64,000 bases of DNA from a virus, in the IMG/VR virus record IMGVR_UViG_3300019742_000002, positions 1 to 64,000 of that record. One strand, given 5' to 3'. Positions within the stretch are counted from its first letter, which is position 1. The number at the start of each line of letters is the position of its first letter. The translations under genes were made by a program, and so were the position numbers. Under the pieces are notes generated by a model. That model did not search any database. It was not told the DNA's origin and was given only the letters and a program-made list of their open reading frames with translations. Below are positions 1 through 63,279 of the stretch, in pieces.

Positions 1-123
1 TTTAAAAAAATAAATTAATAAACACTTTAGTTAATATTTTAATTATTTATATTATAGCTAATGGATGTTTAAAATATTTGATATTCTTTAATTATTTATA
101 AAAAAGATAGAACTATCTTAAAT
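1..123 (-). repeat. Partial third copy of the promoter/leader segment of the palindromic element (rest probably upstream of the window)
   Basis: 1-80 (tttaaaaaaataaattaata..cactttagttaat..tattatagcta) matches the reverse complement of ~62470-62555 and resembles 23281-23340; 100-123 (aaaaagatagaactatcttaaat) matches the reverse complement of ~62565-62593. Confidence 0.75.
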
Positions 124-300
124 CCATTTTATAGTACTATTATGAAATGTTTCATATATCGCATTATCAATAACCTCCTATACACTATTTCCATTATCTA
201 GTGTATCTTGGTAAGCTTTCTTAGAATTAACTATAGCCGATTCTACAATTTCTTTCTCTAACTCATCCATTTCTATATCAGTCATTTATTCCTCCAATCT

Positions 301-13103: not shown

Positions 13104-13499
13104 CTAGTATCCATTCTCGTAGAAATTCATACCTATACTAATAACATCGTCCCAATTATCGGTGGTATCCACATTATAATCTCCAAAAACATCTATATAA
13201 TTATTACCTCTATCACTAACCTCAATTACGAATAACTTAGTACTACCTCTATTAATTGAATAAGATGGTTTTTCATAAACCTTATACTTTTTTGGATTTC
13301 TTCCATAATCATCATAGACTATATCTTCATCAATACCATCATAAAATACAAGTTCAGTACCTTCAGGTAATTTTTTACCCTTAACAAACTTTTTTAAAAT
13401 TCTCTTCATATTAGAATTTTCCATTCTTGTGATGTTATCACTCTCAGATAATTCACTCTCCATAAATTTAACAAAACCCTCATTTAACTTATTACTCAT
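13104..13499 (-). CDS. Putative internal head protein with capsid-targeting-like N-terminus
   Basis: N-terminus MSNKLNEGFVKFMESELSE resembles that of 15010-15303; early and late promoters upstream. Confidence 0.55.
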   Translation of the reverse strand: MSNKLNEGFVKFMESELSESDNITRMENSNMKRILKKFVKGKKLPEGTELVFYDGIDEDIVYDDYGRNPKKYKVYEKPSYSINRGSTKLFVIEVSDRGNNYIDVFGDYNVDTTDNWDDVISIGMNFYENGY

Positions 13500-13524
13500 T
13501 TATAACTCCTTAATTTTTAATTTC

Positions 13525-13585
13525 TTTAAATGTACCTAATTATAGTCTAATAAACTTAAACTAACTTTAAATACAAAACCTTTTA
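13525..13585. repeat. 61-bp exact direct repeat (early promoter cassette), copy 1
   Basis: Identical to 15329-15389. Confidence 0.92.
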
Positions 13586-13618
13586 TATTATTTATAAATA
13601 TTAACAAAAGGAATTATA

Positions 13619-15009: not shown

Positions 15010-15303
15010 TTATTTAGAGTCTAACTTTTCTTTATCCTCTAAGTTTAAGAATCTATCCATACTTAGAGAAGCTATAAATCCATCATCAGCTTCAAATACA
15101 AAATTACTACCTATAACATCCATAATTCTATACCATTTACCTACTGTTAATTTATACCTAGCACTACTAGTTCCATCAGGTTTGGTGAGAAGTCTAAGTT
15201 CATCACCTCTTTTAAATTTATAGTTTCTAATATCATATACTTTTCTCTCATTTAATTCCCTCTCTATAAAATCACTAAAACCCTCATTTAATCTTTTTCT
15301 CAT
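15010..15303 (-). CDS. Putative internal head protein: capsid-targeting-like N-terminus plus SH3-like domain
   Basis: MRKRLNEGFSDFIERELNE then FKRGD...LTVGKWYRI...DDG. Confidence 0.55.
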   Translation of the reverse strand: MRKRLNEGFSDFIERELNERKVYDIRNYKFKRGDELRLLTKPDGTSSARYKLTVGKWYRIMDVIGSNFVFEADDGFIASLSMDRFLNLEDKEKLDSK

Positions 15304-15328
15304 TTTGTGTACTCCCTGTTTTCTTTTA

Positions 15329-15389
15329 TTTAAATGTACCTAATTATAGTCTAATAAACTTAAACTAACTTTAAATACAAAACCTTTTA
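15329..15389. repeat. 61-bp exact direct repeat, copy 2
   Basis: Identical to 13525-13585. Confidence 0.92.
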
Positions 15390-15391
15390 CA

Positions 15392-15625
15392 TTATTTACT
15401 TTTTCTTCTACCTCTACGAACTTTTGGCTCGTCTTCAACAGTTTCAGTATCCTCAACTACAACTTCTAATTCACTAACAGGTTCTTCAATCAATAATTCT
15501 ATTTTTTTAAATTTGCTTTTATTTTTTAAAACAACCTCTACATCATCATTATACATAGCACCTACTTTTATTAATGAAGCTTGTCCATTTACCACTGCCT
15601 TAAATTCCTCTATACATTTATACAT
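15392..15625 (-). CDS. Small late protein with acidic linker and basic tail
   Basis: RBS aaggag; palindromic late promoter 15649-15660; ends KVRRGRRKSK. Confidence 0.7.
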   Translation of the reverse strand: MYKCIEEFKAVVNGQASLIKVGAMYNDDVEVVLKNKSKFKKIELLIEEPVSELEVVVEDTETVEDEPKVRRGRRKSK

Positions 15626-19637: not shown

Positions 19638-21053
19638 ATGAAAACAATGATAAACGAAAAAGTAAGAGAGAGTATGAAGCATACTTACGGTGAGGATATT
19701 GTAGGGCTTTTGGAGTCTGAAAGATTTCCTGCTATTCAAGAAGATAACTTAGGAACACAAGCTATAGTATTGGAAAATACTAAAAAAGAAATAGCTAGAC
19801 TTTATGAGGATACCTCTACATCAGATGTTGCTGTATTTACACCAATATTTATGCCGATGACTCGTAGAATTCAACCAGCTCTTATAGCGAATAGACTTTT
19901 GGGTGTTCAACCAATGTCACAACAAACAGGTTACATTAATACTCTAATCTTCAAATATACAGGTTTTGGGGCAGACGCTAATGATAGACTTGGTGGAAGA
20001 ATTGACCCTGGTGTTAGTTCGCAAATTATAGAAATTACTGGTCATACACTTGTAAAAGGTGATGTTATCTCTAGTGATAATGTTCCTGATACAAATCTTG
20101 CAACTGTAATATATGTAGAGGGTGATTTACTATTGATTGATACTGCAGTATTTAGTGCAGGTGGAATTGTTTATGATAATGCGGCTGTACCTGCTCAAAT
20201 TGGTGCTTTAGTTATTGCTAATACATATTCAAATCAACTTACTTTTAAGAAAATTCTAAAAGGTTACACAGGTTCACTTCCAACCACACAAGCTGAAATT
20301 CTTGGGTATGATATGAAAGAAATCGGGTTCACTGTTACACAAACTCTTATTGAGGCTAAATCAAGAAAATTGAAAGCTGAATATACTGTTGAAATGTACC
20401 AAAACTTGAAAGATACTTATGGTCTTAATGCTGATGAAGAGTTAATGAATATGATGAGTTCTGAGGTTCTTAACGAGCTTGATAGAGAAGTTATTGATTC
20501 AGTAAACTCATGGGCGGCACCATCTAGTGACTTTACAATAGCAAACGGTGCAGGTGCAAGTGGTTCTACAAGATTTGAGATGGAATCAATGGCTCATATC
20601 GGAGTTAAAATCCAAAATGAAGCTAGAGAAGTTGGAAAATTGACAAGAATGGGTTCAGCAAATATTATATTGGCTACACCAAGAGTTGTTACAGTTCTTG
20701 AACAATTGAGAGGATTTAAAGCTATTGAGAATGATTCTATGTTGAGTACAAATGTAGCTGGAGCAAGTGTTGTTGGAACATTTGGTGGAATGGAAGTAAT
20801 CCTTGATAACTTTACTGATAGAGAGTATGTTACAGTGCTTTATAAGGGAGATAATAGGGCATCTATAGGCTACTACTCACCTTACAAAGGCATCTCATTT
20901 ACTAGAGTAACTCATCCTGATACAGGACAACCTGCTATTATATTGAGTTCAAGATACGGTTTGATTGAAAACCCACTAAACCAAGATAATGGTGTTGGTA
21001 TCTTTGGTAGAACATTTGATGTTATATTTGATTCTACATCGGTATTAGCATAA
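19638..21053 (+). CDS. gp23: Major capsid protein gp23
   Basis: RRIQPALIA..GVQPM, AKSRKLKAEYTVEM.Q.L..GLNADEEL, YYSPY, QPAI..SRYGL..NP. Confidence 0.97.
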   Translation: MKTMINEKVRESMKHTYGEDIVGLLESERFPAIQEDNLGTQAIVLENTKKEIARLYEDTSTSDVAVFTPIFMPMTRRIQPALIANRLLGVQPMSQQTGYINTLIFKYTGFGADANDRLGGRIDPGVSSQIIEITGHTLVKGDVISSDNVPDTNLATVIYVEGDLLLIDTAVFSAGGIVYDNAAVPAQIGALVIANTYSNQLTFKKILKGYTGSLPTTQAEILGYDMKEIGFTVTQTLIEAKSRKLKAEYTVEMYQNLKDTYGLNADEELMNMMSSEVLNELDREVIDSVNSWAAPSSDFTIANGAGASGSTRFEMESMAHIGVKIQNEAREVGKLTRMGSANIILATPRVVTVLEQLRGFKAIENDSMLSTNVAGASVVGTFGGMEVILDNFTDREYVTVLYKGDNRASIGYYSPYKGISFTRVTHPDTGQPAIILSSRYGLIENPLNQDNGVGIFGRTFDVIFDSTSVLA

Positions 21054-21244: not shown

Positions 21245-22018
21245 ATGAAATATACAACTCCAAAAATACCACACGAGGATTTATTCTTCAAAGATGTAAA
21301 ATTTAAAACTACAGGTTATTATGTAAAAAGATTTCCAAAAGAATTGGAAGAGTTTCTTATTATGGATTTAGATTTAAAACATTCAAAAAGATACTACATT
21401 GATTCAGTTTATAGATTCTATATAGATAATTTAGAAGAATTAAAAACAGATATTACTCCTTTTATAGAATTTTATAAATCCAATAATAAATTTTATGGTA
21501 AACCTACAATAGCTAAAACATATCCTGAATTATTAGAACAATGGATAGAGGCTACCAAAAAAACTGAATATACAGTAGAAAAATTATATGAATTATGTAT
21601 AAAAGGAGCTTTACCAAAACCAAGAGAAAAATATAATAAAATGATAGTGGATTCTTTATGTGATGAAGCAAAAGAAGAATTTAATAAAGGTGTTAAATTG
21701 TCTTTTGTTATAAGAAAATATATTAATAAAGAAGATATTAATACTCTTTGTAAATCTTGTGGTAAACCAGTTAAACAATTAACAAATGAGTGTTTAGATT
21801 GTACTAAAAGTTTAAAGCAAAAAAGAGCTTCTAAGAAAAGAGGTTTAAGAATGTTAGAAGATAAACCTTCTTATGTTAGTGTTGTAAAAGGTGATGTATT
21901 TTCAGAAGATATTCGTAGAGAAAGACTTACGATTAAATGTTCTAATTGTAATAGAGAATTTTCTTATGTATTGAACTTAGGTAAGAGACACCTATTCTGT
22001 CCAATATGTGATAAATAA
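21245..22018 (+). CDS. Zinc-ribbon protein resembling the DNA-binding part of a homing endonuclease; no nuclease domain visible
   Basis: CKSC, CLDC, CSNC, CPIC then stop; directly downstream of gp23. Confidence 0.55.
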   Translation: MKYTTPKIPHEDLFFKDVKFKTTGYYVKRFPKELEEFLIMDLDLKHSKRYYIDSVYRFYIDNLEELKTDITPFIEFYKSNNKFYGKPTIAKTYPELLEQWIEATKKTEYTVEKLYELCIKGALPKPREKYNKMIVDSLCDEAKEEFNKGVKLSFVIRKYINKEDINTLCKSCGKPVKQLTNECLDCTKSLKQKRASKKRGLRMLEDKPSYVSVVKGDVFSEDIRRERLTIKCSNCNREFSYVLNLGKRHLFCPICDK

Positions 22019-22020
22019 GT

Positions 22021-22052
22021 AGATAAACCTAGTTAAATAACTAGGTTTATCT
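22021..22052. terminator. Perfect 15-bp inverted repeat, bidirectional terminator
   Basis: agataaacctagtta-aa-taactaggtttatct. Confidence 0.8.
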
Positions 22053-22112
22053 TGAACCCCTAACCAAAGTCTCCATATAATAAGAGTTCATTAAACCTAA
22101 TTATTCAGTCAC

Positions 22113-22740
22113 CTAATTAAAATATTTATCAAAATAGATTGTATCAAATCTTAACCTTAATAAATCAACATCATTCATATTACTAAAATCGATAGAATTA
22201 ATCTCAACATCACAAAAATACTTAATTAACTTTTTCTTAATCCCTAAAATCAAAATATCTCTAGTCATTTCACTCCCCTTCTTTCATTCCAACCAATTAA
22301 CTTTTCATTTAAAAGCTCAATCACATAACTTTCAATATTATTTGAGTTCAATACCTCTAAAAAATATTTATTATTATTTTTAGGTAGATAATTAAAATAG
22401 TGACCAATATCTCCATCTTTTAAAGCCATTAGATAAGAACTTTTATTTAAATGACTACTTATACCATCATTTGTGATAACAATATAATTACCATTTTCCA
22501 TTAAAAAGTATAACTCATCGCAAACCTCAACAAATTCTTTAATCATTTTATATCCTTTAGTGATAGCTTACACTTTATCCCATCAAATTCATAACTATAT
22601 GATTCGCTAATTCCTTGACCTATAACTACCTCTTTAGTTGTAGGTTTTAATTCACTCACATCATAACCGTTATTAACTAAGTAGTCCTCTACTATTCTAA
22701 GTACCGACTCAGCTGTTATCTTACTATTTACTTCTATCAT
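22113..22740 (-). other. Small early ORFs (22113-22268, 22265-22546, 22543-22740)
   Basis: Promoter 22769-22790; RBS before ATG 22740; overlapping stop/start codons. Confidence 0.6.
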
Positions 22741-22792
22741 TCTATATCCTTTGTGTTTTAATATTATAATTATAGTCAAATAAACTTAAGAT

Positions 22793-22930
22793 AAAATAAA
22801 AAGTATCTACGATTGAATATATTAATTTATATTTTTTAAAATTTTTTATTTTTTCTTTATTATAAGAGTTTTTATTTACAAATTTTGATTATTATAAGTT
22901 TTTGTTATAGTTTTAATCTTAGATGGTTTT
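22793..22930 (-). repeat. Dispersed non-coding repeat, copy A (left arm of palindrome 1)
   Basis: Reverse complement of the unit aaaaacttataataatcaaaatttgtaaataaaaactcttataataaag...tattcaatcgtagatacttttt. Confidence 0.95.
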
Positions 22931-23098
22931 ATTATAAATGGGTATAGTATATGATTTAAGAGTTCATTAATCTATTTTGATAGTAGGTATGAGTTAGGTT
23001 ATTTAAAGAGGTTTAAAGGTGGTTTATAAGTGTGAATGAGTATTATTATATCTATATAAAATTGGAATAGTAGAAATTAAATAACTACAAGATTATAT

Positions 23099-23220
23099 CT
23101 ATAACAAAAACTTATAATAATTAAAATTTGTAAATAAAAACTCTTATAATAAAGAAAAAGAATTAAAAATTTTAAAAAATATAAATTATTATATTCAATC
23201 GTAGATACTTTTTTATTTTA
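23099..23220 (+). repeat. Dispersed repeat, copy B (right arm of palindrome 1)
   Basis: Near-identical unit, inverted relative to copy A. Confidence 0.95.
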
Positions 23221-23340
23221 ATCAACTATAGTAAAATGAGTAAAACTTATATTAAAATTTAAAAGGGAAGTGTCTTGAAGTAAAAAATAAATTAACAAGA
23301 AAACTAATCACTTTAGTAATCTTATTAATTATTATATCAA

Positions 23341-23859
23341 CTATTTAAATCTCTTAGCCAAATCATAATCTGTTTGGGTAATAATTTTAAATTTATCATA
23401 TAATATAGGTGAGGTTTGGCTTTTCTTTGTGTACATCTTATGAAAATTATTATGATGTTCTTCGCACAAACATACACCATTTGAGTCTTGATAAGCCAAT
23501 GTTGGATGGGTAGCTTTGTCCCATAAGTGGTGTGCAGTTAATTTTTCTTTAGTGTGACATATATCACATTTACCCACCTCTTTAACTCTCATAGCCCAAG
23601 CTTTGAGTTTGACTTGGTCGAACTTTTTTGTTTTTGGTTGAACTTCTATACCTTTTCTTTTAGGTTTTAGTTTATTTAACTCATATTTTAAGTTATTCTT
23701 GTCTATTCTTAAAATAGACAAATTTTCTTTCAACTTAGAATTATCAACTTCAAGAACTTTAATATTATCTTTCAATATATTATAATCCTCTAGTCGAGTA
23801 TAGCCAAGATAGTTTGCTAAACTATCAATAAGTTTTGTAAATGTTGTTTTAGTGTTCAT
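23341..23859 (-). CDS. HNH endonuclease with N-terminal coiled coil
   Basis: KCDIC...LTAHH...NGVCLCEEHHNNFH. Confidence 0.85.
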   Translation of the reverse strand: MNTKTTFTKLIDSLANYLGYTRLEDYNILKDNIKVLEVDNSKLKENLSILRIDKNNLKYELNKLKPKRKGIEVQPKTKKFDQVKLKAWAMRVKEVGKCDICHTKEKLTAHHLWDKATHPTLAYQDSNGVCLCEEHHNNFHKMYTKKSQTSPILYDKFKIITQTDYDLAKRFK

Positions 23860-24308
23860 CTTATTTCCTTTATTTTAGTATGTCTAATTATACTAAAATA
23901 AATATAAATCTAAGCTTAAACTCTTTTATTTATTATTATATCTTTTCTATCTTTTACAAGCTCACGAGTTGCTTTTATAAAAGTTTCAGATAACTCACTT
24001 ATAAATTGATTAGTATATGGTAAATTATTTTTTATAAGAAATGGAATTATATAAGGTTTAATCTCTTCAATTTGTTTTGTATTTATTTTATTTTCTCCTT
24101 ATCTAATATAAAATCATAAGCGTTACATAAAGCTTCATAATAAATATTACCATAAAATTTATCAAGATTATACACATTTCTTTTTGATATATCTTTATAT
24201 AGTGATATAGAAAACCTATTAGTGTGTTTATCTATATTGTTTGTATAACCTAAACATAAACTGTTAATTTTACCTAACATACCATCTATCTTCATTTTTT
24301 TAATTCCT

Positions 24309-24620
24309 TTATTTATACCCTACAATCCCTATTATTGCCCTCTTTTTGTTTCTTGTATAACCTTTACCACCACAAGTTCTACAAGTACATTTTTTCCAAG
24401 TCATTGAATCAAATTGACCACTATCAGGTAATCCTTTAGGATAAACATCAATAAATTCCGATACCTCACCTGTTCCTTCACATTCAGGACAAATAAAATT
24501 TAAACCATTTGATTTACCTAATTCTCTATTTTTATATAAGTCATAACAAGAATTATGTAATATAATACCCTTATAAACCTTACCGTCGTCTACTTGTTCT
24601 TTACAATATTCACATTTCAT
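24309..24620 (-). CDS. DnaJ-type zinc-finger protein
   Basis: CPECEGTG and CRTCGGKG repeats plus N-terminal CxxC..HxxC. Confidence 0.75.
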   Translation of the reverse strand: MKCEYCKEQVDDGKVYKGIILHNSCYDLYKNRELGKSNGLNFICPECEGTGEVSEFIDVYPKGLPDSGQFDSMTWKKCTCRTCGGKGYTRNKKRAIIGIVGYK

Positions 24621-24676
24621 TTTATTCCTTTGTTTTTATATAGTGTAATTATACCCAATTAAACTTAAAGTAACTT

Positions 24677-24809
24677 AAAACCATCTACAATTAAAATATA
24701 ATAAAAACTTATAATAATCAAAATTTGTAAATAAAAACTCTTATAATAAAGAAAAGAATAAAAAATTTTAAAAGTTATAAATTAATATATTCAATCGTAG
24801 ATACTTTTT
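24677..24809 (+). repeat. Dispersed repeat, copy C (solo)
   Basis: Full unit from aaaaccatct to tcgtagatacttttt. Confidence 0.95.
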
Positions 24810-24870
24810 ACAAATATCAATAAAAAAGGAGTTCAAATGTTTTGACTTTAGATAAGAGTTTGTGAACTAG
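24809..24870 (+). pseudogene. Decayed copy of the late promoter, RBS and first codons of gene 30432-31418
   Basis: tacaaatatcaataaaaaaggagttcaaatgttttgactttagataagagttt versus tataaatatcaataaaaaggagtttaaatgttagattttagagaggaattt at 30405. Confidence 0.75.
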
Positions 24871-24911
24871 ACTATAAGGGAAGCACTTTGCTAGTAAACT
24901 TAAGGTAGATT

Positions 24912-25196
24912 TTATAATTCTTTAATTTCTATTTTTAAATAAAAACCTCTTTTAACTAATAATCTATGATAAACCATTTTATCTATATAAAATATAGAAC
25001 CTTTTGTTAATCCCATAGGTAACTTATTATCTAATTGTAAATAACAATTATTACTCTCTAAAACCTTTATATGTCTATCTCTTTTATCCCTATGCCACAC
25101 CAATTCTTTAGTATCATTTATATATTCCTCTTTAAACTCTCTTACAAATAAATCTTTATCTATATATGTTTCTACATAAGGTTTACCAAAACGCAT
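24912..25196 (-). CDS. Small cupin-fold protein
   Basis: ELVWHRD..DR.IKV...LQLDN.LP...YHRL; His pair typical of cupins. Confidence 0.65.
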   Translation of the reverse strand: MRFGKPYVETYIDKDLFVREFKEEYINDTKELVWHRDKRDRHIKVLESNNCYLQLDNKLPMGLTKGSIFYIDKMVYHRLLVKRGFYLKIEIKEL

Positions 25197-30003: not shown

Positions 30004-30198
30004 TTATTTACAATTTTGTGGTTTAAGTGTTTTGGGATTTATCCAAACACTTAATTTCTTAGTACTGTTTAGATAATATATATTATCCACACAAATCTTA
30101 TTAAATGTACTAAATCCTGAGTTTCCTTTGGTAGTATAACTATCATCACATCCATTGATTGTCATTAATATTGCCAATATAACTAATACTCTTTTCAT
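30004..30198 (-). CDS. Small lipoprotein
   Basis: MKRVLVILAILMTINGC lipobox-type signal; early promoter. Confidence 0.7.
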   Translation of the reverse strand: MKRVLVILAILMTINGCDDSYTTKGNSGFSTFNKICVDNIYYLNSTKKLSVWINPKTLKPQNCK

Positions 30199-30258
30199 CT
30201 TTTATCCTTTATTTTGTTTAGATAATATATTATATAATAAGTAAACTTAAACCAAGAT

Positions 30259-30405
30259 AAAACCATCTAAGATTAAAAAATTATTTATAGTATATAATAA
30301 AAACTTATAATAATCAAAATTTGTAAATAAAAACTCTTATAATAAAGAAAAGAATAATAAATTTTAAAAAATATAAATTATTATATTCAATCGTAGATAC
30401 TTTTT
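30259..30405 (+). repeat. Dispersed repeat, copy D (solo)
   Basis: Full unit; abuts late promoter 30405-30412. Confidence 0.95.
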
Positions 30406-30431
30406 ATAAATATCAATAAAAAGGAGTTTAA

Positions 30432-31418
30432 ATGTTAGATTTTAGAGAGGAATTTAAAAACCTACAATTTAATGAAGCTATTATGTTGGAGTTAGAAGAT
30501 ATTGAGTTAGTTGAGCGTATTTTACCTTCACAAGCTATTTCATCAGCCTCAAAGAAAGATGTTAGAAAGATGTCAAGAGCTAACTTACAAAAAATCGTAG
30601 ATAAATTTACGGAGTTTGTGGCTATAGAATATCAAAAACATCCCAAAAAACAAAAATATCTAGGTAGAATGAGATTTATTACGGATACAGGAAAGATTGT
30701 AGAGTATCCTATTAAATCACTTACAAAAGATTCTTATGACAAGATTATAAAAAATAAAGAAGAGGGTAGAGGTAGAGATACATCTACGGATAAAGCTAAT
30801 AATAAATTAAGAGTTGAGGTTGGATATGGTGAATGGATTACTATAAATCTTGATAATGTATTGGGATTGATTTTTAAAGGGAAAGTATTTAGTTTAGAGG
30901 ATATATCTAGGCAAGATTTAGATAATGAAACACAAGAATCAACTATTATGAGATTTGTTAATAATCAAGCTAGAACAAAAACAAAAATAATTAATAATCT
31001 TATACCAATTCTAAAAGAGTTCAATTTTTCTAAAATACCTGATGAAGCTGACGAAGAAAAGGAAAAAAGAAAAGCTTTAAAAAGTATTAGGTCTATGAGT
31101 ACAGTTACTAAGTATATTGCTCAATCAAAAAGAGAAAAGGCTATGGATGACACCAAAGATAGCTATAGTGTTACTGTTAAAGGATACAATCCAAAAGATG
31201 ATTTGTTGCAAGTTGAGGTTAAGATAAATCTTCAAGAAGTTCTAAGTAATTTTGGTTATGATAATTTGACTTTAGGGAAAGTTCCTGAAGGTTTTTCAAA
31301 GAGTGATTGGAAAGAAAAAGTACAAAGTATAAAAGATGAGATTAGTGAGGTATTTGTAGCTAATGGGTTTAACTGTAAAGTAGGTAGAGCTTGGATTAAT
31401 TGTATAGTAGAGGGTTAA
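30432..31418 (+). CDS. Late protein, probable internal head protein
   Basis: Late promoter; N-terminus MLDFREEF..LQFNEAIMLELE. Confidence 0.55.
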   Translation: MLDFREEFKNLQFNEAIMLELEDIELVERILPSQAISSASKKDVRKMSRANLQKIVDKFTEFVAIEYQKHPKKQKYLGRMRFITDTGKIVEYPIKSLTKDSYDKIIKNKEEGRGRDTSTDKANNKLRVEVGYGEWITINLDNVLGLIFKGKVFSLEDISRQDLDNETQESTIMRFVNNQARTKTKIINNLIPILKEFNFSKIPDEADEEKEKRKALKSIRSMSTVTKYIAQSKREKAMDDTKDSYSVTVKGYNPKDDLLQVEVKINLQEVLSNFGYDNLTLGKVPEGFSKSDWKEKVQSIKDEISEVFVANGFNCKVGRAWINCIVEG

Positions 31419-60070: not shown

Positions 60071-61366
60071 TTGAGTGAAATACCTAAAAAAACCAAAAAA
60101 TCTATAAGACAATATGTACAAGAGGATGAGATTAAATTTTATATATACCTTTTTAAATATTCCCAACAATTAAAAAATATTGAAGAAATGACTAAAGAAG
60201 AAATATTAGAAAAACATAAAAAGGCCGTTCAAGCTAGATTGAAAAGAATTAAATCGAGTATTCTAAGGAAATATGAAAATTTTTTAAATGTCATTGAGGC
60301 TGGTGATAATGATTTAACTGATGAGTTTGTCTTATCAAGGTTTAATAAATTAGATAGAGATAATAAAGAAATATATACTGATTCTTTAGAGGGTATTTTT
60401 ATATATAATAAAAATAAAGAGTATGTTAAATGTTGGGAAGCACCTATAGATAGAGATTTAATTATAAAAGAATTTAATGAGAAGAGGAATAATTATATAG
60501 AATTTCTTGAAAATACGGACAATAAAAGATTTAAAAATGAGTTAGATTATGTAAAAAATATTAAAATATCTTCTAATACATCTAAGGAAAAATTTGGTAA
60601 AATTATAATGATTATGGTACATAACTTATTAAAAATGCCTAGTTTTAGTTCGTATACAGATAATTGGAGTTCTGATTTTTATTCAAATGCTGTAGAGAAA
60701 ATATTATTATATACTCATAATTATGATGAAAATATACTATCTTCTATATCAGGTCAAAAAAGTAAAGCCTTTGCATATATAACACAAGTTTGTACCAATG
60801 CTTTTAGGAATATTATAAATACAAGAAAAGAAGATGAGGAGTGTCTTAGAGATACTATTTCATTGAGTACATTTCACACCGATGGTGTATTAATAGATTC
60901 TACCAACAAAAGTACATATATTAATGAACATAACTCAATAAAAATTAGACTAAAAACTAAAGACATTCTTATAGAGATTAAAGATTATATTGATAAAATT
61001 AGAGAAACTAATTCTATAAACTTTGCTAATATATCTATAAAAACTGAGTTAAAATATTTAAAAGAGGATATAGATGAGGTTGATAAAAATAGTGACTATT
61101 ATGATTATATAGAACAACTAGAAAATAAAATAAATCATTCTAAGTTGATAGAAGATTTAAGTAACAACGAAGACGAAATTGAAGGTGTTACATTTATAAA
61201 AGATTCTAGTATTAGTTTAACTGAGGATATTTTAAACGAAATAGAGGCTTATAAAGGTTCTCTATATGTATCAATAATAAATTATAAAGAACCTATAGAA
61301 ATTGAAAAAGAGGAAATTATAGAAAAAATAGTTAAGAAAAAGGTGGATTTTACAGATGAGTTCTAA
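60071..61366 (+). CDS. gp55: Late-transcription sigma factor gp55 (enlarged, 431 aa)
   Basis: FGKIIM..V.NL...SFSSYT..W..DF..A.E..L.Y..NYD...AFAYITQ..NAF; adjacent to gp47. Confidence 0.88.
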   Translation: MSEIPKKTKKSIRQYVQEDEIKFYIYLFKYSQQLKNIEEMTKEEILEKHKKAVQARLKRIKSSILRKYENFLNVIEAGDNDLTDEFVLSRFNKLDRDNKEIYTDSLEGIFIYNKNKEYVKCWEAPIDRDLIIKEFNEKRNNYIEFLENTDNKRFKNELDYVKNIKISSNTSKEKFGKIIMIMVHNLLKMPSFSSYTDNWSSDFYSNAVEKILLYTHNYDENILSSISGQKSKAFAYITQVCTNAFRNIINTRKEDEECLRDTISLSTFHTDGVLIDSTNKSTYINEHNSIKIRLKTKDILIEIKDYIDKIRETNSINFANISIKTELKYLKEDIDEVDKNSDYYDYIEQLENKINHSKLIEDLSNNEDEIEGVTFIKDSSISLTEDILNEIEAYKGSLYVSIINYKEPIEIEKEEIIEKIVKKKVDFTDEF

Positions 61367-62459
61367 AGTTATTATATTAGGAGATACTCATTTTGGTATC
61401 AAGAAGTTTTCGTTAGAATTTCTTGATAATCAACTAGAACTTTTTAATTCTCAAATATTTCCATATATGCAAGAGAATAATATAAAAGAAATATATCAAT
61501 TAGGAGACCTTTTTGATAATAGAACAACAGCTGAAGTTGGTTGGCTAGAGAGTGTTAAATCTAAATTCTTTGAGACTCTAAAAGAAAAAGATATAGTTCT
61601 ATATACTCTATTAGGAAATCACGATATTTATTTCAGAGAGTCAAGAGAAATATCTTTAATCGAAACATTTTCTGAACTATACCCTAATAATTTTAAGATA
61701 TTTAAAGAGAGAACTTCAATAAATCTTTTGGGTAGAGAAACATATATAGTGCCTTGGATTACTAAAAATGAATCTCTTGAATATAATGAAATAAAAGATA
61801 AAGAAATCATTTTAGGTCATTTTGAAATTAGAGATTTTAGTATGGTTAAAGGTCATGTGGATAAATCGTCAAAACTAACTAAAAACTTTTTTAAAACTGA
61901 TACTAAAGTAGATAGAGTGTTTTCGGGTCATTATCATCTAAAAAATACAGATTCTGATATAAAATATTTAGGTACACCTTTTCAACTAACTTTTGCTGAC
62001 CATAAAGAAGAAAAGGGTTTTTATGTATGGGATGGTTGGAATTTAGAATTTATAGAGAATACTTGCACTAAAAGATTTATAGAAATTCATTATAATGATT
62101 CAAATTTAGATGGTAATGTTGAGGTTATAGGATTAGCTAAAGAAAGTTTATATTATACCAAAGACGAGTTTAAGGATACTTTAGAGAGTTTAGAAAAACA
62201 CGATTGTAAATTTATAGTAAAAGAATCTAAAAATAGAGATTTTGACGATATTATATTTAACATAAAAGAATCTAAAATAAAAGTATCAATATCTAATCAA
62301 CAAGAAGTTAAAGAGCTTATAGGTGATGTAACAAATATTGATGAAAGTGTTCTCAAAGATACTAGAAAATTTATATTAGATAAAGTGAAAGATAGTGATG
62401 AAAATTTAGTTCCTACTTTATTGGAAATTTTTAGTGATTTGGATTCAATTACAAGCTAA
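61356..62459 (+). CDS. gp47: Recombination endonuclease subunit gp47 (Mre11/SbcD)
   Basis: GDTHFG, LGDLFDNR, GNHD, VPWI, GHFE, FSGHYH, YLGTP. Confidence 0.93.
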   Translation: MSSKVIILGDTHFGIKKFSLEFLDNQLELFNSQIFPYMQENNIKEIYQLGDLFDNRTTAEVGWLESVKSKFFETLKEKDIVLYTLLGNHDIYFRESREISLIETFSELYPNNFKIFKERTSINLLGRETYIVPWITKNESLEYNEIKDKEIILGHFEIRDFSMVKGHVDKSSKLTKNFFKTDTKVDRVFSGHYHLKNTDSDIKYLGTPFQLTFADHKEEKGFYVWDGWNLEFIENTCTKRFIEIHYNDSNLDGNVEVIGLAKESLYYTKDEFKDTLESLEKHDCKFIVKESKNRDFDDIIFNIKESKIKVSISNQQEVKELIGDVTNIDESVLKDTRKFILDKVKDSDENLVPTLLEIFSDLDSITS

Positions 62460-62469
62460 TTTTTAATAT

Positions 62470-62555
62470 TTTAAACAAGTATTAGCTATAATATAGACAA
62501 TTAAAAAAGATTAACTAAAGTGTTTATTAGTTTTTCTTATTAATTTATTTTTTTA
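62470..62555 (+). promoter_or_regulatory. Sigma70-type promoter and conserved leader pointing into palindrome 2
   Basis: tttaaac-N-gctataat then ttaactaaagtgtttattag..ttaatttattttt; homologous to 23281-23350 (-) and 1-80 (-). Confidence 0.6.
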
Positions 62556-62740
62556 AAATATGAAAGCAAATTTAAGATAGCTCTATCTTTTTTCATATTT
62601 AAAACTTTTTATATAAAATACCTCCGTTTAATTCCCTTTTTTACATTTCATCTATAAGTTTTAATTCATTAATATATAACTATAAAAAGATACTCTTCAA
62701 TTAAACATAATAAATAATATCTATAGTTTACAGTTGCTCA

Positions 62741-62887
62741 AAAGAGTATCTACGATTAAATATATTAATTTATAACTTTTAAAATTTTTTATTCTTTTCT
62801 TTATTATAAGAGTTTTTATTTACAAATTTCACTTTTTATAAGTTTTTATTATATTTAAACTATTATATTCAATCGTAGATACTCTTT
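62741..62887 (-). repeat. Dispersed repeat, copy E, with an extra inverted terminal motif
   Basis: Unit on - strand at 62741-62856; tattcaatcgtagatactcttt on + at ~62866-62887. Confidence 0.92.
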
Positions 62888-63055
62888 ATAAATTTCATAT
62901 AGTAATTCACTTTATCTACTATAGTCAATCAAAACAATACTTCAATATAAACTATGTACTATTTAATCATCCATAAACTACCTTTAAACCACTTTAAATA
63001 ATATATCCTATACCTTACTATTAAAATCAATTAATAAAGCCTTAAAATACCCAAT

Positions 63056-63197
63056 AAAATCATCTATGATTAAAACTATAATAAAAACTTATAATAATCA
63101 AAATTTGTAAATAAAAACTCTTATAATAAAGAAAAAGAATTAAAAATTTTAAAAGCTATAAATTAATATATTCAATCGTAGATACTTTTTTATTTTA
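63056..63197 (+). repeat. Dispersed repeat, copy F
   Basis: Full unit. Confidence 0.95.
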
Positions 63198-63279
63198 AAT
63201 GATTAAGTAATTATATACTATAGATATTAAATGATGATTATAGATGAAATGTGAAAAAAGGAATTAAACGGAGGTATTT

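Follow-up and report, generated by a model that had tools for sequence, protein, structure and literature searches.

The first 64 kb of the IMG/VR virus record IMGVR_UViG_3300019742_000002 (91,723 bp; 26% G+C; estimated completeness 47%), called here the window, harbor at about 22.8 kb a large non-coding palindrome whose arms belong to a family of repeats dispersed, in dozens of copies, between the genes of the phage. The basic entity of this family is not the palindrome but an AT-rich imperfect hairpin unit of ~130 bp. With a probability of about one half, the element can be regarded as a dispersed, lineage-specific regulatory cassette formed by a hairpin and a promoter, similar to the PeSLs (promoter-early stem-loop cassettes) of T4-type phages, which would punctuate transcription units and recombine. 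This reading starts from direct observations on the anatomy and copy number of the unit, its fixed orientation and spacing with respect to genes and promoters, its hairpin potential, the exchange of allele blocks between copies, and insertions and deletions in its neighborhood. From these we infer a terminator or insulator activity of the hairpin, promoter activity of the adjoining boxes, and any role of the spacer enclosed by the palindromes. An original prediction, which dealt with the palindrome at 22.8 kb (locus 1), had taken the palindrome itself as the functional unit; this view is not sustained, since solo units outnumber pairs and one metagenomic locus (L002) lacks the second arm.

All copies of the unit can be aligned. 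In the so-called R orientation, the reading that begins with the terminal motif, they show an A-run, GTATCTACGATTGAATAT, phased T-tracts, two TTATTATAAG(AG)TTTTT iterations, the inner end and a T-run. The inner end defines two types. In type-a units, which are most of the copies, it repeats the motif in inverted and degenerate form, AATCTTAGATGG, and the terminal inverted repeats are imperfect and 15-19 bp long; in type-b units, present in the distal arms of palindromes and in a few solo copies, it is a near-perfect inverted copy of ~30 bp. The stem is bracketed by AAAA before and TTTT after it. The folding energies are -27.6 to -28.5 kcal/mol for solo units (z -3.2 to -4.1) and -30.8 to -37.7 kcal/mol for type-b units (z -5.6 to -6.9), the two limits of the latter being the R and F values, respectively, of the arm 62740-62890. 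The T-tracts are phased with a peak at 9.5-10 bp, which is suggestive of curved DNA, although all copies represent one sequence and the phasing is effectively a single observation. The original prediction had described the internal iterations and the conserved end correctly, but overlooked the solo copies at 24676-24810 and 30257-30407 and the fact that the unit itself is a hairpin with terminal inverted repeats.

The 91.7-kb record carries ten copies of the unit, arranged as three inverted pairs and four solo units, two of which (64702-64844 and 69901-70042) are located beyond the window. Sister loci were obtained from metagenome contigs (L-numbers) that were fetched because they hold the unit, some of them being slices of longer contigs. 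An exact 24-mer of the unit is present in 46 copies at 34 loci, all within four sister metagenomes. At least 34 distinct copies align with ~90 invariant positions, while orthologous genes of the sister phages diverge by 2-8%, so that the earlier proposal of a multi-copy element maintained by selection is upheld. The same 24-mer has no exact match in prokaryotes (185,579 genomes, one per species), and on this ground an origin from a miniature inverted-repeat transposable element (MITE) or a prophage of the host was rejected. No similar unit was found in isolated phages (by megablast and a further similarity search), and the unit is missing from the distant relatives L017-L030, whose major capsid proteins are 49-62% identical to that of this phage. 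The similarity of locus 1 to isolated phages is restricted to a promoter and its ribosome-binding site: positions 22740-22801 match those of Campylobacter phage IBB_35 (HM246722.1, 22546-22606) with 82% identity over 62 nt, which suggests that this phage has its promoter type in common with Campylobacter phages.

Two kinds of promoter sequences accompany the unit. One is the late-promoter word of T4, TATAAATA, which together with a ribosome-binding site is located upstream of structural genes. The other constitutes the main promoter family of this phage and consists of TTTAAGTTTA, 6-7 nt, TATAAT, usually TAGAG, and then AAAGGA and ATG; 21 of its 22 sites are on the minus strand. The family box fits the C. 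jejuni -35 consensus TTTAAGTnTT (PMC3824568), but it is nearer to the -10 box than in C. jejuni and, therefore, the host is not inferred from it.

Solo units occupy a constant position between genes. In at least nine solo copies a gene of the same strand stops -4 to +23 nt before the unit, which there is always in R orientation; the family promoter or TATAAATA begins 0-20 nt past the unit, and the next gene begins 40-137 nt past it, mostly at 58-64 nt. Among the metagenomic solo copies, the family promoter is found 10-20 nt past the unit in seven and TATAAATA in three. The former arrangement is seen at 24.7, 30.2 and 69.9 kb and in L038, L046, L048, L063, L064 and L065, and TATAAATA takes the place of the promoter at 64.8 kb and in L043, L060 and L062. 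For instance, the minus-strand unit 24676-24810 (R on this strand) is followed by 12 nt, the family promoter 24666-24648 and the gene 24309-24620, and on its other side there is the stump of a late gene. The unit 30257-30407, also on the minus strand, is located between divergent promoters, namely a late TATAAATA at 30405 that precedes the gene 30432-31418 and a family promoter (30248-30229) that precedes the gene 30004-30198; its L038 counterpart likewise sits between a divergent pair of late and early-type promoters.

In palindromic loci, two units face each other. At locus 1, BLAST aligns 22792-22920 with 23220-23089 (94% identity over 132 nt, E 4.5e-52), leaving a spacer of 168 nt, and a repeat finder delimits the arms as 22828-22920/23089-23181 (93 nt, 87%) plus 22793-22873/23138-23218. 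No open reading frame (ORF) of 40 or more amino acids exists between 22780 and 23336. The whole layout, spacer included, reappears inverted at 62740-63197 (locus 2; 76% over 474 nt, E 7e-94), and a segment of the tail that follows locus 1 (23282-23337) matches 62553-62491 (84%) and 5-52; the tail is partly homologous to 1-78 and 62465-62553. These results confirm what had been predicted about two inverted copies around a ~170-bp spacer, the lack of ORFs, the inverted recurrence near 62470-63200 and the tail copy at the start of the window. There is a third palindrome (locus 3) at 80156-80578, beyond the window, with the whole layout spanning ~80.1-80.8 kb. The palindromes are not assembly artefacts, since their arms have diverged and are not identical, and independent assemblies of sister samples (L033, L035/L041, L036/L047) show the structures with substitutions of their own.

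Locus 1 begins with arm A (22792-22920), a type-a unit read in R on the plus strand. Its outer terminal motif is TATTCAATCGTAGATACT (22802-22819, minus strand); the unit's terminal inverted repeat consists of this motif plus the A/T run that flanks it. The spacer (22921-23088, plus strand) is directional and non-coding, with 30 G against 2 C in its peak 120-nt window, and contains a conserved core (~22967-23031) with the Shine-Dalgarno-like sequence AAAGAGGTTTAAAGGTGG at 23005-23022. Arm B (23089-23220), the second unit copy, is read in R on the minus strand and has its outer terminal motif at 23192-23209. The tail (23221-23340, minus strand) is composed of a promoter-like box at ~23250-23225 (AAGTTTTA..TATAGT), a small hairpin with a T-run and a bare TATAAT at 23336-23331. 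Locus 2 starts with its tail (62465-62739, plus strand), which contains the -10-like AGCTATAAT (62484), a small hairpin, the C-rich box ATACCTCCGTTTAATTCCC and a promoter-like box. A type-b arm follows (62740-62890, plus strand), with a near-perfect terminal inverted repeat of ~30 bp and a second full motif at 62866-62883; next come the spacer (62891-63069), a paralogue of 22921-23088 that is G-rich on its sense strand, here the minus one, and a type-a arm (63070-63198, minus strand).

All six palindromic loci with readable flanks (22.8, 62.7 and 80.2 kb; L014, L002 and L035) show one constant polarity: the end of the upstream gene, often with the tail, a type-b arm in R, the antisense spacer (as RNA, C-rich and G-poor), a type-a arm, a strong outward family promoter, and a gene. 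In eight palindromic loci a gene start pointing away is found 16-55 nt past the motif end of the proximal arm. L002 keeps the tail, the type-b arm and the spacer, and has a late promoter in place of the second arm; therefore, the pairing of two arms is not obligatory. The three genes of ~180 amino acids located to the right of the three palindromes were considered as one mobile gene family, which was ruled out because they share no similarity.

The original prediction also held that a TATAAT promoter feeds the palindrome of locus 1. This was evaluated with a weight matrix built on 19 promoters of the phage itself. Within 22700-23400, more than 8 bits are reached only at 22790, by a main-family promoter with its ribosome-binding site (22741-22791, minus strand; AAGTTTA at 22787-22781 and TATAAT at 22774-22769) that scores 24 bits and points leftward, away from the palindrome, to the gene 22543-22740; the outward promoter of locus 3 reaches 34.6 bits. 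The tail TATAAT (23336-23331, minus strand) is a bare -10 hexamer that lacks an upstream box and scores less than 6 bits for the -10 block, so that a feeding promoter is unsupported at locus 1. A generic scan for sigma-70 promoters and terminators is uninformative in DNA with 74% AT: it gave 11 promoter-like sites, where 8.1 were expected, and not a single terminator.

Different observations indicate that the unit duplicates and recombines together with its promoter. The homology between copies does not stop at the unit but also covers the ribosome-binding site and the promoter (24615-24861 vs 30193-30455, 82%; 24626-24810 vs 69849-70037, 85%) and, therefore, unit and promoter duplicate as one cassette. 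At orthologous sites of a sister strain, two units are identical and two differ by blocks such as TTTTGATTATTAT vs TTTCACTTTTTAT, alleles that are also found among paralogues. All four combinations of two variable blocks are present among the copies. This pattern is the signature of exchange between copies. A further repeated cassette of ~150 bp (13441-13598 and 15245-15398 in the window, 88288-88431 in the record; 84-88% identical), which holds an early-type and a late promoter back to back, shows that the repetition of regulatory cassettes is a general trait of the genome.

Insertions and deletions are observed beside the units. At the 24.7-kb unit, the window has lost an adjoining ~1 kb, kept in L038, that contains an early gene and a late gene, in a recent deletion; of the late gene, the promoter and start-codon stump is left. 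Only a degenerate late promoter (TACAAATA) and ATG-TTT-TGA remain in 24811-24911, and L038 (3230-3790) has an intact TATAAATA-driven gene of ~170 amino acids whose N-terminus, MFDFRKEFVNE, resembles the MLDFREEF of the gene 30432-31418. Beside another palindrome, ~2 kb of the window including a homing-endonuclease-like gene are missing from L035; the absent sequences comprise this gene (301-1128), a neighbor of the loci, and the adjacent 1345-1698, and in L035 the orthologous upstream gene leads through a 31-codon ORF directly to the palindromic locus. Both events have their break-points next to the unit, within promoter or coding sequences. The flanks could not be read at ~16 of the 34 metagenome loci, where the unit is too near an end, some of these ends being limits of contig slices and not true ends.

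According to the preferred reading, which takes the element as a PeSL-like cassette, the hairpin would act in RNA by stopping or attenuating transcripts from the upstream gene, and in DNA it might keep neighboring promoters apart. A promoter of the phage's own families within ~12 nt, either TTTAAGTTTA-N6-7-TATAAT or the late TATAAATA type, would then restart transcription. A palindrome would consist of two opposite units placed around a short non-coding segment where an operon begins; the distal one would close the incoming transcription unit, and possibly also a counter-transcript from the spacer, and the proximal one would part the spacer from the outward-firing operon promoter. [quoted passage not shown]

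Several facts weigh against this proposal. The stem-loop is 5-10 times longer than those of the described PeSLs, and it is AT-rich and not GC-rich. The phage also possesses ordinary short terminators, such as the hairpin with a T-run at 62574-62593 (plus strand) in the tail of locus 2. The ~90 invariant positions and the conserved 18-nt terminal motif exceed the needs of a plain terminator and, together with the 9.5-10 bp phasing, hint at a bound protein or a role at the DNA level. The 30.3-kb unit, placed between divergent promoters, needs no terminator. Finally, the conserved spacer core and tail, present in at least five loci, are not accounted for by a cassette of hairpin and promoter.

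One of the rival explanations, which is unlikely, considers the unit as a selfish miniature mobile element, similar to MITEs or palindrome-associated transposable elements (PATEs), that spreads by means of its terminal inverted repeats, any regulatory effect being secondary. These repeats are 15-30 bp long (AAAAGTATCTACGATT... vs ...AATCTTAGATGGTTTT) and near perfect in type-b; the unit measures 130-150 bp, has hairpin potential and no coding capacity, is restricted to one phage lineage and occurs there in more than 34 near-identical copies in both orientations. However, target-site duplications or direct repeats are absent from the flanks of the units, and neither Y1_Tnp, the TnpB zinc ribbon, Resolvase (serine recombinase) nor rve (DDE) was found in the 91.7-kb record, which represents ~47% of the genome. 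No empty site was seen among orthologous contigs, though all contigs were fetched by the presence of the unit. In addition, the orientation of the unit relative to transcription is fixed in all tandem contexts, the homology of the copies passes beyond the inverted repeats into the promoters, and the mosaicism of allele blocks suits recombination and not a copy-out mechanism.

About as unlikely is the possibility that the composite blocks of ~750 bp (tail, distal arm, C-poor spacer and proximal arm), of which there are at least 5-8 per genome, do more than punctuate transcription and are dedicated functional loci, producing promoter-started ~430-nt RNAs with perfect double-stranded stems of ~130 bp or acting as palindromes that are opened or cut for R-loop- or recombination-dependent replication. 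A ~430-nt hairpin RNA could be a substrate or decoy of RNase III, or a counter-defence RNA. If true, these blocks would serve, within a phage, as a compact and repeated model system in which to study origin function or long double-stranded RNA.

A replication start, for which the original prediction had proposed a transcription-primed origin with iterons, seems rather improbable. Replication would begin from a persistent R-loop formed, as in T4 oriF/oriG, by a transcript over the G-rich and C-poor spacer, beside the easily melted AT-rich arms, or from an extruded or cut palindrome that primes recombination-dependent replication. The spacers show an extreme G-over-C skew (+0.88, -0.85 and +0.92 at the three loci), whose direction is opposite to the neighboring genes in loci 1 and 3; the arms consist almost entirely of AT and contain internal repeats, and the existence of several copies per genome recalls the multiple replication origins of T4. 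Locus 2 directly follows an SbcD-like gp47 gene, and a distant relative (L029) has a large palindrome, unrelated in sequence, with tandem repeats between divergent genes. However, a strong G-over-C skew is common in this genome, where it marks the sense strands and affects 7.8% of the windows, and the cumulative skew tracks the gene strand and has no turning point at the loci. The record contains no MotA-type middle promoter, (A/T)3TGCTT(T/C)A-N11-13-TAnnnT, and TGCTT is missing from loci 1 and 3; the -10-like words beyond the proximal arm are weak (6-8 bits, a score that the record reaches at 263 sites), and L035, L036 and L049 have lost them. The absence of one arm in L002 and the solo units, which have the arm sequence but no spacer, also speak against an origin. 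The lack of a MotA-type promoter and the failure of the feeding promoter leave the earlier origin proposal unsupported. The skew of the spacer could equally well correspond to a counter-transcript or to a C-rich and G-poor stretch that favors Rho loading on read-through RNA.

Equally hard to credit is an RNA gene, either a transcript of ~430 nt, begun just outside the distal arm, with a double-stranded stem of ~130 bp or a small RNA or mini-ORF transcript of ~150-300 nt that comes from the sense strand of the spacer and terminates at the distal arm. In the leftward reading, locus 1 folds into a stem of ~130 bp (-133.7 kcal/mol, z -24.6) ending in a U-run, but this fold follows from the symmetry of the DNA and is not independent evidence. 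A promoter-like box is present immediately outside the distal arm in five loci and reaches 18 bits at locus 3 (80607), although it scores below 8 bits at loci 1 and 2 and is missing in L035. As is typical of transcribed strands in this phage, the spacer is G-rich, and its core is conserved in primary sequence, with a double Shine-Dalgarno-like word and an ATG in seven of nine copies. However, the mini-ORFs (3-16 codons) are conserved neither in length nor in sequence, and orthologues are split by a 1-nt indel, so that a coding spacer was ruled out. No conserved fold of the spacer was detected (RNAalifold on eight paralogues, -1.6 kcal/mol in sense and 0 in antisense), nor was any Rfam match in 22000-25000 with E up to 1. 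The arms differ within loci at 1, 5 and 8 positions and between loci at a median of 8, which means that they are no more alike within loci; homogenisation between arms, examined as a sign of selected pairing, fits only the 80-kb locus (1 difference). Compensatory changes amount to zero across 34 units and 22 predicted pairs, the units being too invariant for this test, and L002 is one-armed. The noncoding RNA of ~500-700 nt with a double-stranded stem that had been suggested is thus left without covariation or a conserved RNA fold in its favor.

A programmed inversion site that flips the spacer or the 40-kb segment between loci 1 and 2, also contemplated in the original prediction, is highly improbable: loci 1 and 2 are inversely oriented, contigs often break in units and CP21 and CP220 differ by inverted modules bounded by repeat regions (PMC4546147), but the six readable loci keep the single polarity of tail, type-b arm, antisense spacer and type-a arm, so that no inversion isomer is seen, no invertase or resolvase was found in the record, and the 34 metagenome loci include no alternative junction.

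With respect to the neighboring genes, an HNH endonuclease gene (23341-23859, minus strand; phrog_119, E 1e-7) ends at the tail of locus 1. Upstream of locus 2, the gene of the late sigma factor gp55 (60188-61366) precedes that of the SbcD-like gp47 (61356-62459), after which the palindromic locus starts at 62465, with no Rad50-like gp46 gene in that place. A tail copy truncated by the start of the record occupies 1-130 (minus strand) and carries AGCTATAAT and TATAAATA on this strand, as well as a bidirectional terminator hairpin at ~103-121. The assembly of the record broke within this repeat; such repeats break the assemblies of these phages, and the window begins in one. At the other end of the record, beyond the window, 91526-91723 is a terminal direct tandem duplication of 96 bp with 99% identity. 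A tRNA scan of the window gave no hits.

The phage encodes a homologue of T4 gp23, the major capsid protein (19638-21053), that is 42% identical to those of Vibrio T4-like phages and 38% to that of Campylobacter phage CP21. Apart from one near-identical strain, its identity with metagenomic relatives is only 49-62%. The phage, an uncultured myovirus, thus belongs to a distant AT-rich T4-like lineage and is not of the CP220/CP21 type. One of these relatives (L029, capsid 54% identical, 22% G+C) has at 2526-2995 a palindrome between divergent genes that is unrelated to the unit, with 200-nt arms that are 97% complementary and form nested hairpins around a center of three 25-bp tandem repeats. 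Large intergenic palindromes thus recur in the clade while their sequences turn over.

In T4, the origins oriF (uvsY) and oriG (34) combine a middle-mode promoter with an unwinding element located downstream, which gives rise to an R-loop primer. The palindromic loci share with them AT-rich DNA beside a segment whose transcript would be G-rich and the existence of several loci per genome. However, they have no MotA box, their candidate -10 sequence is weak and not conserved, and the T4 origins are not palindromic repeats.

The Campylobacter group II phages CP21, CP220 and CPt10 possess the repeat regions RR1-RR4 (Timms et al. 2010, PMC2853527; Hammerl et al. 2015, PMC4546147). These regions are extragenic and two-armed, some with inverted arms, and enclose unique DNA; single units are found elsewhere, and their function is unknown (PMC2853527, PMC4546147). 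The original prediction knew of no promoter-plus-inverted-arm architecture in phages of the CP21 type, a remark that is inaccurate with respect to inverted arms, since Hammerl et al. 2015 (PMC4546147) describe some, and one can be read in CP21, where 9 and 4 inverted 85-bp units surround a unique center of ~130 bp. Both systems have two arms, direct or inverted, that enclose unique sequence, single units elsewhere in an AT-rich T4-related myovirus, and repeats that break assemblies and are proposed as recombination substrates. Nevertheless, the units have no sequence similarity, and in CP21 each arm is built as a tandem array, with 3-18 units of 72-86 bp, in contrast to the single ~130-bp unit per arm described here; CP21 is also only distantly related, as judged by its capsid protein. 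The element is thus best considered an analogue of the repeat regions found in CP21, not a member of them, because its units lack the CP21 sequence and are single, not tandem.

The 13-nt core of the CP21 units (HE815464.1, ~55.6-56.8 kb; L031, 16030-17100), AAACTTAAAGCAA, is the TTTAAGTTT box in reverse complement, the same box that forms the main promoter family of the phage studied here. This core has no exact match in the present phage, and its two one-mismatch matches (24661 and 30243) are the promoter box beside units; in CP21 the core is inside the unit, whereas here the box is outside it. Each 85-bp CP21 unit contains the TTTAAGTTT box followed by GGATATAAT. Since this pairs the box with TATAAT, the CP21 repeat arms look like promoter-like arrays that converge on the unique center. 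Promoters are not mentioned for the CP21 repeat regions in PMC2853527 and PMC4546147, and these long unexplained regions may be arrays of promoter cassettes.

The closest parallel is provided by PeSLs, which join a conserved early promoter, with AT-rich DNA upstream, to a stem-loop terminator; they occur repeatedly in plastic regions and mediate insertions and deletions (PMC2839356, PMC4122927). They are known in the T4-type phages RB49/phi1, T4/PST and KVP40/nt-1 (Arbiol et al. 2010, PMC2839356; Comeau et al. 2014, PMC4122927). The element described here is likewise a repeated intergenic stem-loop that follows an upstream gene and is joined to a conserved promoter for the next gene, and it is present in many copies in a T4-like phage, beside indels between sister phages, as a plausible recombination substrate. 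Solo units carry in the cassette a promoter that by its sequence is of the conserved early type, and their stable stem-loop (z -3 to -7) is in terminator position, the upstream gene ending -4 to +23 nt before it. There are also differences: the stem-loop measures 130-150 bp, is AT-rich and nearly invariant and bears an 18-nt terminal motif, whereas described PeSLs are short and often have stems of G/C tracts; its partners are both late and early-type promoters; and it also exists as inverted pairs, with a conserved spacer in between and a conserved tail. The PeSL idea would thus reach a distant, uncultured and AT-rich branch of the T4-like phages, in which the stem-loop part has grown to a near-invariant hairpin of 130 bp that can pair into palindromes of 430 bp.

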